A DNA stretch of 16,596 nt from a virus. The stretch is from the UHGV virus genome UHGV-1601287. One strand, written 5' to 3'. The position numbers and the translations under genes were made by a program. Every line of letters starts with the position of its first letter. Position 1 is the first letter of the stretch. Below are positions 2,886-15,901 of the stretch, piece after piece. The notes under the pieces were generated by a model, which saw only the letters and a program-made list of their open reading frames with translations, did not search any database and was not told the origin of the DNA.

Positions 2886-4865
2886 ATGACTTTATTATCT
2901 CCGGGCATTGAGCTCAAAGAAACTACGGTTCAAAGCACCGTGGTTAATAACTCTACTGGTACAGCAGCTTTGGCCGGTAAATTCCAGTGGGGTCCTGCTT
3001 TTCAGATTAAACAGGTTACAAATGAAGTAGATTTAGTTAATACTTTTGGTCAACCAACCGCTGAAACTGCTGACTATTTTATGTCTGCGATGAATTTCTT
3101 GCAGTACGGAAATGACTTACGAGTAGTTCGTGCTGTTGATAGAGATACCGCTAAAAACTCATCGCCAATTGCTGGTAATATTGAATACACAATTTCTACC
3201 CCAGGTAGTAACTATGCAGTTGGAGATAAAATCACGGTCAAATATGTTTCAGATGATATTGAAACTGAAGGTAAAATTACTGAAGTAGACGCAGATGGAA
3301 AAATTAAGAAAATTAATATTCCTACTGCAAAAATTATCGCTAAAGCGAAAGAAGTCGGTGAATATCCGGAATTAGGTTCTAACTGGACTGCAGAAATTTC
3401 TTCGTCTTCCTCTGGTTTAGCCGCAGTAATAACTCTTGGAAAAATTATTACTGATTCTGGTATTTTATTAGCTGAAATTGAAAATGCCGAAGCTGCTATG
3501 ACAGCGGTTGACTTTCAAGCAAATCTCGAAAAATACGGAATTCCAGGAGTAGTAGCTCTTTATCCAGGCGAATTAGGCGATAAAATTGAAATTGAAATCG
3601 TATCTAAAGCTGACTATGCAAAAGGAGCTTCTGCATTACTCCCAATTTATCCAGGTGGTGGTACTCGTGCATCTACTGCTAAAGCAGTGTTTGGATATGG
3701 ACCACAAACTGATTCACAGTACGCTATTATAGTTCGTCGTAATGATGCTATTGTTCAAAGTGTTGTTCTTTCAACTAAGCGTGGTGAAAAAGATATTTAC
3801 GATAGTAACATCTATATCGATGACTTTTTCGCAAAAGGTGGTTCAGAATATATTTTTGCAACTGCACAAAACTGGCCAGAAGGCTTCTCTGGAATTTTAA
3901 CTCTTTCTGGTGGATTATCATCAAATGCTGAAGTAACAGCAGGAGATTTGATGGAAGCTTGGGACTTCTTTGCTGACCGTGAATCTGTAGATGTTCAACT
4001 GTTTATTGCGGGTTCTTGTGCCGGTGAATCTTTAGAAACAGCATCTACTGTCCAAAAACATGTTGTTTCAATTGGGGATGCTCGTCAAGATTGCTTAGTA
4101 TTGTGCTCACCACCACGTGAAACTGTAGTTGGAATTCCTGTAACTCGTGCAGTAGATAATTTAGTTAACTGGAGAACTGCGGCAGGTTCATACACTGATA
4201 ATAACTTTAATATCAGTTCAACCTATGCAGCAATCGATGGCAACTACAAATATCAGTATGACAAATATAATGATGTGAATCGTTGGGTTCCATTAGCAGC
4301 TGATATTGCTGGTTTATGCGCAAGAACTGATAACGTATCTCAGACTTGGATGTCTCCAGCTGGTTATAATCGTGGCCAGATTCTTAACGTTATTAAACTT
4401 GCTATTGAAACTCGCCAGGCTCAGCGTGACCGTTTATACCAAGAAGCTATCAACCCGGTAACTGGTACAGGTGGTGATGGTTACGTATTGTATGGTGATA
4501 AAACAGCTACTTCTGTTCCTTCTCCGTTTGATCGTATTAACGTTCGTCGTCTGTTTAATATGTTGAAAACGAATATCGGACGTAGTTCAAAATATCGTTT
4601 GTTCGAATTAAACAACGCGTTTACTCGTTCATCGTTCCGCACAGAAACTTCCCAGTACTTACAGGGAATTAAAGCTCTCGGTGGAATTTATGAATATCGT
4701 GTAGTTTGCGATACAACAAATAACACTCCGTCAGTAATTGATAGAAATGAGTTTGTTGCAACATTCTACATCCAACCGGCTCGTAGTATAAATTATATCC
4801 AACTTAATTTCGTCGCAACTGCTACTGGTGCAGATTTTGATGAGTTAACTGGTCTTGCAGGTTAA
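2886..4865 (+). CDS. 18: Contractile tail sheath protein gp18
   Basis: 659 aa, the T4 gp18 length. N-terminus MTLLSPGIELKETTVQSTVVNNSTGTAALAGKFQWGP is recognisable as T4 tail sheath. AAGAGGA Shine-Dalgarno at 2872-2878. TATAAATA late promoter at 2850-2857. Confidence 0.96.
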   Translation: MTLLSPGIELKETTVQSTVVNNSTGTAALAGKFQWGPAFQIKQVTNEVDLVNTFGQPTAETADYFMSAMNFLQYGNDLRVVRAVDRDTAKNSSPIAGNIEYTISTPGSNYAVGDKITVKYVSDDIETEGKITEVDADGKIKKINIPTAKIIAKAKEVGEYPELGSNWTAEISSSSSGLAAVITLGKIITDSGILLAEIENAEAAMTAVDFQANLEKYGIPGVVALYPGELGDKIEIEIVSKADYAKGASALLPIYPGGGTRASTAKAVFGYGPQTDSQYAIIVRRNDAIVQSVVLSTKRGEKDIYDSNIYIDDFFAKGGSEYIFATAQNWPEGFSGILTLSGGLSSNAEVTAGDLMEAWDFFADRESVDVQLFIAGSCAGESLETASTVQKHVVSIGDARQDCLVLCSPPRETVVGIPVTRAVDNLVNWRTAAGSYTDNNFNISSTYAAIDGNYKYQYDKYNDVNRWVPLAADIAGLCARTDNVSQTWMSPAGYNRGQILNVIKLAIETRQAQRDRLYQEAINPVTGTGGDGYVLYGDKTATSVPSPFDRINVRRLFNMLKTNIGRSSKYRLFELNNAFTRSSFRTETSQYLQGIKALGGIYEYRVVCDTTNNTPSVIDRNEFVATFYIQPARSINYIQLNFVATATGADFDELTGLAG

Positions 4866-4872
4866 TTGATAA

Positions 4873-4888
4873 GGGGGCTTCGGCCCCT
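4873..4888 (+). terminator. GC-rich hairpin with UUCG tetraloop after gene 18
   Basis: GGGGGC-TTCG-GCCCCT: 5 bp G:C stem plus a wobble pair, starting 8 nt after the gene 18 stop. No strong U-tract follows, so it may be an RNA-stability or processing element rather than a full terminator. Confidence 0.5.
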
Positions 4889-4904
4889 ATTCTCGAGGAA
4901 TCAA

Positions 4905-5510
4905 GTGATTATTTCTAAGTTTGTTACAATAAAACCAAGAAATCATTCAAAAATGTGGTCGACAATTCTGGGATATAAAGTATCATATCATGATACAGTA
5001 TCTGTTCCAATAGAATTAATGCCAAAGAATAGTAATAAAATAGTTGACGCTAAATGTGATTTGTGTGGTATTAAATTTAGTAGAAGCATTCAGCTTTTAA
5101 ATAGAACACCCACGCATGCATGTAGAAAATGTAGCATTAAACAAGTTGCTATTAAAAATTCGGAAGTTCAATCTGGAATAAGTAGACCATGGCAAAGAGG
5201 TGATAAACATCCTCGATGGACTGGTAAAAGAAAAGAGTTTGCATTATATGCTAGTAGAGTTCATTCTATAACTAAGTCAGCTAAAATAAGAAAAATTTGG
5301 TCAAAATGGCCAAATGCTGATAAAATAGGAGTGTGTGGTACAAAAGGTGCTTACCAACTTGATCATAAGGTATCTATCAAATATGGATTTGATAATTTAA
5401 TTCCGCCGGAAATTATAGCAAGCGTAAAAAATTTAGAAATAATCACTTGGGAATCTAACCGAGAAAAGTCAAAAAGAAATAGCGTAGATCTTTGGGATTT
5501 ACTAGAATGA
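4905..5510 (+). CDS. HNH-family endonuclease (putative free-standing homing endonuclease) with an N-terminal Cys4 zinc-finger-like motif
   Basis: ORF in the 18-19 interval ending TGA 5508-5510. C-terminal HNH-like motif QLDHKVSIKYGFDN…NLEIITWESNREKSKRN. Upstream CxxC…CxxC (CDLCG…CRKC). Start is ambiguous: the track's TTG at 4866 lies inside a hairpin and is unlikely; GTG at 4905 has GAGG (4895-4898) at good spacing; ATG at 4953 has a weak ribosome-binding site. AT-rich with AGA/ATA codons, unlike the neighbouring structural genes. Confidence 0.6.
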   Translation: MIISKFVTIKPRNHSKMWSTILGYKVSYHDTVSVPIELMPKNSNKIVDAKCDLCGIKFSRSIQLLNRTPTHACRKCSIKQVAIKNSEVQSGISRPWQRGDKHPRWTGKRKEFALYASRVHSITKSAKIRKIWSKWPNADKIGVCGTKGAYQLDHKVSIKYGFDNLIPPEIIASVKNLEIITWESNREKSKRNSVDLWDLLE

Positions 5511-5517
5511 TTCTAAA

Positions 5518-5535
5518 GGCCTGTTTCGGCAGGCC
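5518..5535 (+). terminator. Hairpin after the HNH ORF
   Basis: GGCCTG-TTTCGG-CAGGCC: 6 bp stem, extendable to 7 bp with a UUCG loop, 8 nt after the HNH stop codon. Confidence 0.5.
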
Positions 5536-5536
5536 A

Positions 5537-5544
5537 TATAAATA
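5537..5544 (+). promoter_or_regulatory. T4 late promoter (TATAAATA), distal copy upstream of gene 19
   Basis: Exact TATAAATA immediately 3' of the hairpin that follows the HNH ORF. Confidence 0.6.
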
Positions 5545-5595
5545 CACTATATCCTTAATTCTTTAATTCTATATGCCCTAGGTTAAACATAGGGA

Positions 5596-5603
5596 TATAA
5601 ATA
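5596..5603 (+). promoter_or_regulatory. T4 late promoter (TATAAATA), proximal, for gene 19
   Basis: Exact TATAAATA 15 nt upstream of the gene 19 ATG, with AGAGG Shine-Dalgarno in between. Confidence 0.75.
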
Positions 5604-5617
5604 CTACAGAGGCTAAT

Positions 5618-6141: not shown

Positions 6142-7766
<1,625 letters not shown>

Positions 7767-7767
<1 letters not shown>

Positions 7768-11496: not shown

Positions 11497-11509
11497 TCTT
11501 TGACGATTT

Positions 11510-11529
11510 AAGGGACCTTCGGGTCCCTT
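11510..11529 (+). terminator. Intrinsic terminator after gene 23
   Basis: AAGGGACC-TTCG-GGTCCCTT: 8 bp stem with UUCG loop, followed by the T-rich TAGTTGTTTTTAT. Confidence 0.7.
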
Positions 11530-11544
11530 TAGTTGTTTTTATGG

Positions 11545-11552
11545 TATAAATA
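11545..11552 (+). promoter_or_regulatory. T4 late promoter (TATAAATA) for gene 24
   Basis: Exact TATAAATA 28 nt upstream of the gene 24 ATG, immediately after the gene 23 terminator hairpin. Confidence 0.75.
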
Positions 11553-11579
11553 AATCATATAAACCAAAAGGAAAGCGCA

Positions 11580-13906: not shown

Positions 13907-14185
13907 TCAAAATGTAATTTCTAACCAATCACCATCACGCTGATCACTATTGACTTTAAAGCTAAATCCTTCTTTTCTCAGCCAATCACCAATTTCTTCA
14001 GTAATCAATTTATCACGAGCAATACAATAATAATTAAAATGTGTTTTACCTTGTTCAGCAGCTTTATTAGCAAGTTCCGAAAAATCTTTAATAAAACACT
14101 CTAGCTTAAACTGTTTACTTTTAAGTGCTTTTTCACGCAATTGATTAGCAAAAGATTCATTTTCATAAAGATCATACTGTTCCAT
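13907..14185 (-). CDS. 24.2: Conserved hypothetical protein (T4 24.2-like)
   Basis: 92-aa ORF directly upstream of rnlB on the same strand; position matches T4 gene 24.2. Function unknown. Confidence 0.7.
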   Translation of the reverse strand: MEQYDLYENESFANQLREKALKSKQFKLECFIKDFSELANKAAEQGKTHFNYYCIARDKLITEEIGDWLRKEGFSFKVNSDQRDGDWLEITF

Positions 14186-14387
14186 TTTTCACCTTTTTAT
14201 TGATATGTCTTTTTCTATAGACAACTTTTTCTCGAGTTTCAAATTTATTCTTAGCAGTCATAGCTCGAGCCCATAATACAGCCACTTCTTTTGCCTGTAA
14301 GTTTAATTCACGAGCAATTTCAATGAATGACTTTCCAGACTCATGAAGAGTAAACACCACAACCTCAGTTCTCATAATCAATCTCAT
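14172..14387 (-). CDS. 24.3: Small hypothetical protein with predicted helix-turn-helix (T4 24.3-like)
   Basis: 71-aa ORF overlapping the 24.2 start by 14 nt. HTH-like segment SGKSFIEIARELNLQAKEVAVLWARA. Start uncertain (ATG 14387 or ATG 14375). Confidence 0.6.
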   Translation of the reverse strand: MRLIMRTEVVVFTLHESGKSFIEIARELNLQAKEVAVLWARAMTAKNKFETREKVVYRKRHINKKVKNGTV

Positions 14388-14482: not shown

Positions 14483-15901
14483 TTATGGATAGGTATAGAT
14501 GATACCAGTTTCTAAAGCAGTTTTATGAATGATGTATCCATTACGCGATTCTTGGACATCAACTTCTGGATAGTCTTTCATCATCTTCTGAAGAGTGTAA
14601 CGATGCAGGTAGTATTTACTATCTGGATCTTCAGTTTTCCAATCTTTACCTTCTTCAGTCATTTTTTGGATTTCATCCATAACCCACCAACCGCACCAGA
14701 TGTAAGCTGAAGTACGATGTGGAAGAGGATGGACATAAGGTAATTCACCTTCTGGTTCCGGAGCAACTTTATCAGTTACCTGAACTTGACCTTCTGCTGT
14801 AATAGTTTTGCTATCATAGTCATCTGCAGTAACGACGGCAGTCACTTCAATAGTTTGACTTCCAACAGATGAAGTATCAACGGTATATACATTAGTTGAT
14901 CCTTCTACTGGAGAAGAATCTTTCTTCCATGAATAAGTAATTTGTGCCGGTTCGGGTGCACCAGTAACATTAGCTGTAAATGTAGCCGAAGCATCTTGTT
15001 GAACGTTAATAGAAGGAGGAGTCAATGTAACCTGTGGATTCATTGTCTTCTTATTAACCGTTAATGATACTTCATTAGAAGTAACTGTTTTTGCGTCATA
15101 ATCCGTTGCTGTTACTTGGGCTACGCATTTAATTATTTTTACTCCAACTGCAGTAGGAGTATAGCTAAATGTAGCGGAAGTTGCTTCACTAATTTGTGAA
15201 TCATCTACATACCACTGATACGTAGCAGATGCTCCATCAGGTTGAGAAACTAAAGCGGCTGTAAATTGAACAGCTGTTCCGATTACTCCGGCAGCAGGAT
15301 TAGCAGGAGTTACAGCTAGGGTAGTCGTTTGTGTTTTCTTGTTAACAGTCAAAGATACTTCATTCGAAGTAACTTCCTTTTCATTGTAATTTTCTGCAGT
15401 TACTTGGGCTACACACTTAATTTTTTTAACTCCGCTTGTGGCAGGAGTGTAATTGAATGTAGCGCTAGTTGCTTCGTCCACAGGAGAACCGTCAACGTAC
15501 CATTGGTATGTGGCGTTTGCGCCAGATGGCTGCGAAGCTAAAGCGGCTGTAAATTCAATAGCTGTTCCAATTACTCCAGCGTCAGGGCTATTAGGAGTTA
15601 CAGCTAAGGTGGTCGTTTGTGTCTTATTTTGAACTGTGATAGTTGTAGTAGCTTCTGCTGTTTCAGCTTCAGCTTCTGGAACTGTATTTGTTGCAACTAC
15701 TTTAATAGTCTTTTGACCGGCAGGTCCCTTTAATACGTAATTAAAAGTTGCTTCAGCTCCATCTTGTGGAACATTATCTACGCTCCAAGCATAGGTAATA
15801 GGTCCATCTCCAGTTTGACCACTGGGCGTAGCAGTAAACTGCTGAGTCTGATCTATAACTCCAGTAGGTGTTTTAGGAGTTATATCAACTGTAAAAGTCA
15901 T
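14483..15901 (-). CDS. hoc: Highly immunogenic outer capsid protein Hoc, expanded form with four Ig-like domains plus the C-terminal capsid-binding domain
   Basis: N-terminus MTFTVDITPKTPTGVID and C-terminus …YIIHKTALETGIIYTYP are recognisable as Hoc. It is 472 aa against 376 aa in T4. The extra 96 aa is a second copy of the KTQTTTLAVTP…SLTVNK domain (residues 93-188 and 189-284, ~77% identical). Confidence 0.92.
   Translation of the reverse strand: MTFTVDITPKTPTGVIDQTQQFTATPSGQTGDGPITYAWSVDNVPQDGAEATFNYVLKGPAGQKTIKVVATNTVPEAEAETAEATTTITVQNKTQTTTLAVTPNSPDAGVIGTAIEFTAALASQPSGANATYQWYVDGSPVDEATSATFNYTPATSGVKKIKCVAQVTAENYNEKEVTSNEVSLTVNKKTQTTTLAVTPANPAAGVIGTAVQFTAALVSQPDGASATYQWYVDDSQISEATSATFSYTPTAVGVKIIKCVAQVTATDYDAKTVTSNEVSLTVNKKTMNPQVTLTPPSINVQQDASATFTANVTGAPEPAQITYSWKKDSSPVEGSTNVYTVDTSSVGSQTIEVTAVVTADDYDSKTITAEGQVQVTDKVAPEPEGELPYVHPLPHRTSAYIWCGWWVMDEIQKMTEEGKDWKTEDPDSKYYLHRYTLQKMMKDYPEVDVQESRNGYIIHKTALETGIIYTYP
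15050..15625 (-). repeat. In-frame tandem duplication (2 x 288 bp) inside hoc encoding two Ig-like domains
   Basis: Unit 1 at 15338-15625 (Hoc residues 93-188) and unit 2 at 15050-15337 (residues 189-284). Both begin KTQTTTLAVTP and end SNEVSLTVNK. About 77% amino-acid identity, and the DNA is visibly alignable. Confidence 0.85.

Follow-up and report, generated by a model that had tools for sequence, protein, structure and literature searches.

A probable homing-endonuclease-type gene (T6 gene 19.1 family) separating tail genes 18 and 19 of a T4-like phage

Why the tail sheath gene 18 and the tail tube gene 19 of virus genome UHGV-1601287 stand 752 base pairs (bp) apart, when the same spacer measures 116 bp in the T4 annotation, is the question addressed here. 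The 16,596 nucleotides (nt) analyzed (hereafter, the window) correspond to the late morphogenesis block of a T4-like phage, a Tequatrovirus, and carry, in order, the 3′ part of gene 15, genes 16, 17, and 18, an additional open reading frame (ORF), and genes 19, 20, 67, 68, 21, 22, 23, and 24, followed on the opposite strand by rnlB, 24.2, 24.3, hoc, and inh. An earlier note on this DNA had proposed that the additional ORF is an inserted homing endonuclease gene. We put the probability at about 0.6 that the cassette holding this ORF is a free-standing homing-endonuclease-type gene belonging to the T6 “gene 19.1” family, and we hold it to be nearly as probable that the cassette is, or recently was, a homing element.

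The separation of genes 18 and 19 relative to T4, as claimed earlier, is real and is accounted for by a 644-bp cassette (Table 1), the junctions of which were read by hand alignment with T4 and checked on 10 further empty-site genomes. The left edge falls directly after the TAA stop codon of gene 18 (4865), where T4 and the window part, and the right edge lies inside the TGA stop codon of the ORF (5508–5510), where the two sequences rejoin with ATTCTAAAGGCC, the final base of that TGA supplying its first A. From position 5510 onward the window equals T4 base for base, and the boundaries were the same in every genome examined (22 genomes compared). The ORF stands alone in the spacer, past the stop codon of gene 18 and short of the gene 19 promoters, with its own Shine-Dalgarno sequence and GTG start, and an Rfam scan of the window matched no family, so there is no group I intron context for it. 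Its low guanine-plus-cytosine content and rare AGA and ATA codons, which had been remarked upon before, were borne out by counting: the guanine-plus-cytosine fraction is 0.28–0.335 in the ORF and 0.37–0.43 in gene 18, AGA supplies 10 of 12 arginine codons (4 of 28 in gene 18 and 1 of 18 in gene 23), and ATA supplies 9 of 21 isoleucine codons (3 of 50 and 0 of 39, respectively). The ORF thus looks foreign in composition and codon usage.

The cassette is sporadically present or absent at one precise site among near-identical phages. A megablast search with the region returned 695 phage records, 117 of them spanning the whole query. Three targeted queries, consisting of the T4 junction, the central part of the ORF as found in the window (allele A), and the central part of a second version first met in RB9 (allele B), showed that among 502 records carrying the junction flanks, 382 have an empty T4-type junction, 70 have allele A, and 48 have allele B; the cassette is absent from 76% of Tequatrovirus records. 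All 70 allele A records, which include T6, PST, and PP01, have it at the same site with at least 95% DNA identity. Alignment against T4 and other empty-site genomes, such as T2 and RB14, defined the boundaries, and the T4 spacer does not contain the ORF, as had been supposed; however, T6 is itself occupied, by an ORF long annotated as hypothetical (gp19.1 or ORF160), and so are more than 100 other sequenced Tequatroviruses.

The window ORF is the same gene as T6 gp19.1, T6ORF160, and PHROG 5104, from which it does not differ. The T6 copy is annotated T6ORF160, the annotation of VR7 reads “gp19.1, similar to T6 gp19.1”, and a few pipelines have labeled members of the family “HNH endonuclease”, “homing endonuclease”, or “type II restriction endonuclease”. 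T6 has been credited with one “other HNH” gene, its location not stated (Petrov et al. 2010, PMC2993671), and the listing of Edgell et al. 2010 (PMC2988022) has no homing endonuclease gene at 18/19; we found no description in the literature of gp19.1 or of an endonuclease between genes 18 and 19. The sequence is therefore already known from deposited genomes, of which more than 100 are Tequatroviruses, and the gene is uncharacterized.

The locus is fixed across the T4 superfamily. All eight annotated homologue loci that we opened, from eight genera or groups (RB9, VR7, Klebsiella Roth16, Acinetobacter AbTZA1 and Acj61, Shewanella Thanatos-2, Dhakavirus PSD9, and Sinorhizobium phiM12), lie directly after tail sheath gene 18. 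Among IMG/VR sequences, 30 of 36 long matches adjoin gp18/gp19 homologues, even in environmental phages with a gp18 just 34–47% identical to that of T4, as do 10 of 44 matches to the C-terminal domain (C-domain) alone. In an IMG/VR sample seeded with gp19, 14 sites were empty and one was occupied (n = 15), and carriers can be found alongside close relatives with an empty site, e.g., VR26 and two empty siblings. The family is large, with 7124 clusters at 50% identity and E ≤ 1e-3, 1577 of these at ≤1e-10.

This constancy from Tequatrovirus to phiM12, together with the size of the family and the intact, selectively constrained ORFs described below, is what commends the main rival explanation, namely that the cassette has long been resident in the T4 superfamily as an accessory gene, often lost and otherwise vertically inherited. 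Its product might be, for example, a late-acting nuclease or a DNA-binding protein of benefit to the phage, such as one by which the DNA of competitors or of the host is degraded or excluded. We disfavor this explanation as unlikely, although it is the most serious of those considered. Empty and occupied sites differ by a clean insertion/deletion in genomes that are otherwise 97–99% identical, and the codon usage looks foreign. Moreover, the identity of the ORF does not follow that of gp18: in RB9 gp18 is 99% identical and the ORF 51%, whereas in VR7 the values are 72% and 59.5%. Placement also varies, since in VR26 the ORF abuts the start of gene 19 and in Tequatrovirus it follows the stop codon of gene 18, and therefore the exact insertion point in the spacer differs between lineages.

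Some environmental copies depart from the common arrangement. Two IMG/VR loci (L048 and L081) have the homologous ORF or a C-domain remnant between the gp18 and gp19 homologues on the opposite strand, two (L081 and L100) have only remnants of ∼74 amino acids (aa) consisting of the C-domain alone, and one (L052) has an internal stop codon; these copies look to be decaying. Other T4-like lineages that also carry the 18-19 cassette have an extra ORF of 190–198 aa between genes 19 and 20 (L120, 1908–2480; L121, 1619–2191; L127, 1615–2211). It had no Pfam match at E ≤ 0.01; one copy bears a faint NUMOD3 mark, and a “YIGSS” motif can be seen by eye. Possibly this ORF is another endonuclease-type insert, occupying the adjacent spacer. 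No such ORF is present in the window, where the 19-20 spacer is ∼71 bp.

Whether the ORF encodes a nuclease was approached through its homologues and a structural model. Both motifs pointed out before, an N-terminal CxxC...CxxC and a C-terminal LDH...N...N, are located in the ORF. A database search gave 43 homologues, none with a Pfam domain in the nuclease region, and those with names were all “hypothetical”. When these were aligned, C51, C54, and C73 proved invariant and C76 almost invariant; D153, H154, N176, N185, R186, and K188 are likewise invariant (the invariance of D153-H154, N176, and N185 was judged on 39 full-length homologues). When 50 diverse C-domains taken from related loci were compared, no positions were invariant other than one tyrosine, the D-H pair, and the two asparagines. 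An AlphaFold (AF2) model built from the homologue alignment had a mean predicted local distance difference test score (pLDDT) of 88.9, with the N-terminal module (N-module) above 90 and a linker at residues ∼90–108 less confident, and it places, in order, an N-terminal strand/helix and zinc finger, the linker, two helices, and a C-terminal unit. The latter comprises a strand (150–154) ending in D-H, a second strand (177–181) after N176, and a helix (182–187) containing N185, and in the model it is of beta-beta-alpha-metal topology.

Profile searches were less direct. The earlier note had counted the lack of a significant HNH-family match as evidence against its assignment, and the window protein gave no significant match in Pfam or NCBIfam, to HNH families or to any other. 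In PHROGs it belongs to family 5104, of unknown function (1.9e-82), and its N-terminal part weakly matches a “homing endonuclease” PHROG. All 50 C-domains likewise fall in PHROG 5104, and at E < 1e-3, 12 of them matched PHROG “endonuclease VII” (best 2.3e-5) and three matched “HNH endonuclease” families; the commonest sub-threshold Pfam family among them was HNH PF01844 (5 of 50, best E 0.0057), and one matched HNH_4. Searches of PDB sequences with the window protein (phmmer and profile) yielded no HNH match, only zinc-finger/mS66 matches to the N-module, which also matched DUF4379 treble-clef fingers and the mS66 zinc finger weakly. Foldseek found no match to the model in the PDB, and among viral models (BFVD) it found mostly uncharacterized relatives, some labeled HNH or homing endonuclease. 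Leucine-rich-repeat matches obtained with the C-domain profile against PDB sequences were judged spurious because “P.EIG.L.NLQ” mimics such a repeat. By eye, QLDHKVS...NLEIITWESNREKS in the window protein resembles the HNH segment of Cas9, DVDHIVP...NKVLTRSDKNRGKS, a likeness that offers a lead and not a test. In other phages, and at other loci, the same C-domain is fused to NUMOD3, DUF4379, DUF7487, and helix-turn-helix modules.

From the predicted fold, the invariant residues, and the sub-threshold or transitive profile matches, we consider it very likely that the C-terminal module has an HNH-type (His-Me finger) nuclease fold. The HNH reading of the earlier note is thus upheld by fold and residues but not by a significant Pfam or NCBIfam match to the window protein itself. 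Both model and alignment suggest a zinc-less H-N-N type nuclease beyond the reach of current curated profiles, and the N-terminal zinc-finger module is likely to be the putative sequence-recognition part. It could be argued instead that the protein is catalytically dead, or a DNA-binding protein such as a regulator that keeps an HNH-like fold: no HNH profile is matched significantly, the last motif position is asparagine instead of histidine, and the zinc-binding cysteines usual around HNH cores are absent. HNN variants are, however, active in Cas9 (H840/N854/N863) and I-HmuI. In addition, the D-H pair and both asparagines are held invariant across the 50 diverse members while the rest drifts, and NUMOD3 and similar nuclease-associated modules accompany the domain elsewhere, so we regard a dead or non-nuclease protein as quite improbable and infer that the enzyme is active.

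Two further arrangements of the protein were seen. In four IMG/VR loci (L082, L084, L087, and L104) the C-domain lies in the middle of a protein of ∼550 aa, between an N-terminal DUF4379 zinc finger and a conserved, unidentified C-terminal domain of ∼300 aa. A separate 106-aa BFVD entry from Salmonella phage S16 (M1HDJ8) is 57% identical to one half of the window protein, and its sequence suggests that S16-like phages carry a split or truncated copy.

The two alleles are mosaics of one another. Between A (window) and B (RB9), the DNA of the leader and first seven codons is ∼93–97% identical, that of ∼4926–5290 (residues ∼8–128) is only ∼38–48% identical and effectively unrelated, and that from 5290 to the stop codon and beyond is again ∼90–98% identical; at the protein level the N-parts share 26% and the C-parts 92% identity. 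A/B-type pairs recur in other lineages (P0002/P0018, P0003/P0019 and P0023, P0004/P0016, and P0006/P0026), with C-parts 90–99% and N-parts 25–36% identical, and the DNA of five A/B lineage pairs has the same mosaic in every case. Leader variants are shuffled between A and B inside Tequatrovirus, from which it follows that the two recombine. The occurrence of both N-modules with lineage-specific C-modules in at least five lineages therefore implies repeated lateral exchange, which argues against an old, vertically inherited gene. All 11 A and B ORFs examined are intact, with a ratio of nonsynonymous to synonymous polymorphism (pN/pS) of ∼0–0.2, a pattern that indicates purifying selection on the ORF.

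The same evidence bears on the alternative raised in the earlier note, that of an accessory HNH factor of the packaging machine, like HK97 gp74 or the terminase-associated HNH proteins of cos phages. T4-type phages package by the headful, using the nuclease of gp17 itself. The cassette is absent from T4 and from 382 of ∼500 Tequatrovirus records, gene 18 intervenes between the ORF and gene 17, and an extra N-terminal zinc-finger module and swappable alleles are atypical of packaging HNH proteins. Because the ORF is dispensable and not next to gene 17, we reject a packaging role as extremely improbable.

If the cassette is a homing element, it may have left marks on its neighbors, and gene 18 has a hyper-polymorphic patch near its 3′ end (Table 1). 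In eight Tequatrovirus sequences the nucleotide diversity of this patch (0.24) was the highest in gene 18 (mean 0.04; next highest 0.13); the changes are mostly synonymous, plus one Thr-to-Gln codon (ACC to CAA). A comparison of diversity in gene 20 was disregarded, as it was offset-based and invalid there owing to insertions and deletions. Patch haplotype and allele go together in the 22 genomes compared: all six A carriers are identical, and all five B carriers have a second haplotype (with a few substitutions in sb4), while the 11 empty genomes comprise six of the T4 type, two of a fourth type, the B-like T2 and SA20RB, and the nearly A-like RB14. Divergence over the final 120 nt of gene 18 exceeds that of its upstream part by 3–11 percentage points in each of the five A/B lineage pairs. 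The patch is a candidate co-conversion tract or target/immunity site, resembling the co-conversion tracts and immunity polymorphisms found near free-standing endonuclease genes such as segF and segG.

Several points nevertheless weigh against a homing element. Across 22 genomes, the final 130 nt of gene 18 contain no position at which every carrier differs from every empty genome, and empty genomes with A-like (RB14) and B-like (T2 and SA20RB) gene 18 haplotypes exist. Linkage of haplotypes at 50–95 bp is expected from proximity alone. A locus held constant across very distant phages could fit an old resident gene lost repeatedly equally well, and purifying selection equally fits a gene useful to the phage. 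We favor a homing-endonuclease-type gene in spite of these points, given the clean presence/absence polymorphism and the modular alleles. Homing itself would proceed as follows: in a mixed infection, the enzyme would nick or cut a co-infecting relative that has an empty 18-19 junction, the break falling on the junction, close by it, or in the 3′-terminal part of gene 18. The recombination-dependent repair of T4-type phages would then take the carrier as template and copy in the cassette together with the neighboring part of gene 18. A bolder extension, which we think rather unlikely, is that the 18-19 spacer is the site of a long-lived contest between two endonuclease alleles of different specificities, for each of which its own gene 18 3′ haplotype would be the immune (uncleavable) site, so that each could invade empty sites and perhaps displace the other. 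With the A/B pair recurring in at least five lineages, this would amount to a balanced trans-lineage polymorphism of a selfish element and to more than simple gain and loss by turns.

How would such a gene be expressed without harm to its neighbors? The start is not the TTG at 4866 but the GTG at 4905 behind GAGGA, conserved in all 11 A and B alleles; the family N-terminus M/V-I-I-S (“MIIS”), in which I2 is invariant, agrees with this start. The cassette lies on the late strand directly behind gene 18 and has no consensus late promoter of its own. The box TATAAATT, in the earlier note a near-consensus late promoter, is indeed present in the 3′ end of gene 18 (4787–4794), but it was rejected as a promoter imported with the cassette because it also occurs in empty-site genomes (L011, L017, T2, SA20RB, and RB14). 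The hairpins said to bracket the ORF both fold as described, and the two TATAAATA late promoters said to follow it are present (5537 and 5596); however, the sequence downstream of the insert is that of T4, and therefore the 5518–5535 hairpin and both boxes are native gene 19 signals and were rejected as parts of the cassette. The cassette-borne hairpin at 4873–4888 is probably a substitute for the native hairpin behind gene 18, which has been moved 644 bp farther downstream by the insert. In a terminator scan no canonical intrinsic terminator was called, and the cassette hairpin was not scored as one. An extended leader stem touches the Shine-Dalgarno sequence, but it folds no better than shuffled sequence (z −1.5 and −1.2), so that a leader structure sequestering the ribosome-binding site, as in mobE or I-TevI, is without statistical support.

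Because of the late strand, the lack of its own consensus late promoter, the weak GTG start, and the many rare codons, the ORF is presumably expressed late and at a low level. Its translation would draw on read-through of gene 18 late transcripts or on transcripts from the TATAAATT box at 4787. The cassette hairpin would restore a stem-loop at the end of the gene 18 mRNA, and the untouched gene 19 promoters would leave tail tube expression intact; with both, the cassette would be nearly neutral for tail gene expression.

Table 1. Features of the 18-19 region, with positions in the window
Feature	Positions	Strand	Remarks
Hyper-polymorphic patch in 3′ end of gene 18	4770..4818	+	50–95 bp upstream of the insertion; contains TATAAATT; scan of nucleotide diversity
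Inserted cassette	4866..5509	+	644 bp in place of the 8-bp TACGGTGC of T4; alignment with T4 and 10 empty-site genomes
GC hairpin GGGGGC-UUCG-GCCCCU	4873..4888	+	Cassette-borne, 8 nt past the gene 18 stop; RNA fold; common to A and B alleles
Shine-Dalgarno GAGGA (4895–4899) and GTG start (4905–4907)	4895..4907	+	GAGGAA-N4-GTG kept in 11/11 A/B alleles
ORF, 201 aa and stop	4905..5510	+	T6 gp19.1/ORF160; PHROG 5104
Variable N-module, residues ∼8–128	4926..5290	+	Beta/alpha lead-in, four-Cys treble-clef-like zinc finger, linker, helices; C51/C54 at 5055–5066 and C73/C76 at 5121–5132 (codons at 5055, 5064, 5121, 5130)
Predicted His-Me finger/HNH (“HNN”) nuclease core, residues 144–190	5334..5474	+	D153-H154 5361–5366, N176 5430–5432, N185 5457–5459
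Native post-gene-18 hairpin (5518–5535) and two gene 19 late promoters TATAAATA (5537–5544, 5596–5603)	5518..5603	+	100% identical to the T4 spacer; outside the cassette

Other parts of the window also differ from T4. The gene 23-24 spacer (11497–11579) is 83 bp long and holds a hairpin, GGGACCTTCGGGTCCC, and a TATAAATA box at 11545; at this spot T4 has, on the opposite strand, segD, a GIY-YIG homing endonuclease gene, and therefore the window phage has an empty segD site. The hoc gene (14483–15901, minus strand) encodes 472 aa, compared with 376 in T4, and contains an extra immunoglobulin-like repeat of ∼96 aa that duplicates the second domain (BLASTP). An ORF at the position of gene 24.3 (14172–14387, minus strand) has 71 aa vs. 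the 56 annotated in T4. For gene 20 (6181–7767), the mechanical ORF from a TTG gives 528 aa, compared with 524 in T4, and the true start is probably a downstream ATG.

There is nothing surprising in kind about this cassette, as free-standing HNH genes beside essential phage genes are well known; what goes beyond the routine is only the recurrent exchange of recognition modules between the two alleles and the strictness with which the family keeps to the 18-19 locus. If the protein is active, an uncharacterized HNH family (PHROG 5104, with thousands of metagenomic relatives and no Pfam model) would join the homing endonucleases of T-even phages, the clustering of variation at one spot in a tail sheath gene that is otherwise conserved would be explained, and the 18-19 junction would be added to the sites of marker exchange or exclusion between T-even genomes during mixed infection, a matter of relevance to phage cocktails and to the engineering of T4-like phages. 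With a nuclease core that stays constant and a recognition module that is swapped in nature, the A/B pair would also offer a ready system for studying how target specificity changes.

Among known systems, the earlier note had likened the cassette to the mob and seg genes of T4, and the likeness holds for its sporadic insertion and nuclease module but not for membership in either group. The Mob proteins (MobA–MobE) are free-standing HNH homing endonucleases with an N-terminal HNH domain and a C-terminal DNA-binding region (Edgell et al. 2010, PMC2988022). Like them, the window protein is encoded by a free-standing intergenic ORF between conserved genes, found sporadically among T-even phages, and couples an HNH-type nuclease module to a separate, presumed DNA-binding module. 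Unlike them, it has its nuclease module at the C-terminus (144–190) and its zinc finger at the N-terminus, and whereas mob genes lie in early nucleotide-metabolism regions, the cassette sits in a late structural block on the late strand. Alignment of the C-domain profile with T4 MobE by hhalign, the only Mob protein compared, gave a probability of 0.1, and with the domain order reversed, we reject Mob membership; MobE itself just reaches Pfam HNH (21.5 bits), which the window protein does not.

The “intronless homing” of T4 SegF and SegG (Belle 2002; Liu 2003), as summarized in the papers that cite these studies (PMC2993671, PMC2988022), has a free-standing endonuclease gene beside an essential gene cleave an endonuclease-less relative away from the insertion point, with repair co-converting the flanking markers and nearby polymorphisms protecting the carrier copy. 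The gene 18 3′ patch of the window fits this picture. The Seg proteins are GIY-YIG nucleases with demonstrated cleavage sites and marker exclusion, unlike the window protein, a predicted nuclease of the HNH type.

A third comparison is with modular homing endonucleases assembled by domain shuffling (Barth et al. 2023, PMC10448857), such as the “beads on a string” of I-TevI. The cassette shares with these a nuclease core with exchangeable recognition modules and the presence of alternative endonuclease alleles at one locus. Replacement of one homing endonuclease gene by another at a single locus is familiar from SegH/Hef for mobC/mobE. A recurrent A/B N-module swap was not found described for any T4-type locus in the literature, and it sets the cassette apart from such cases, in that A and B keep the same nuclease end and leader and differ in the N-module only, and the same A/B pair recurs in at least five lineages.

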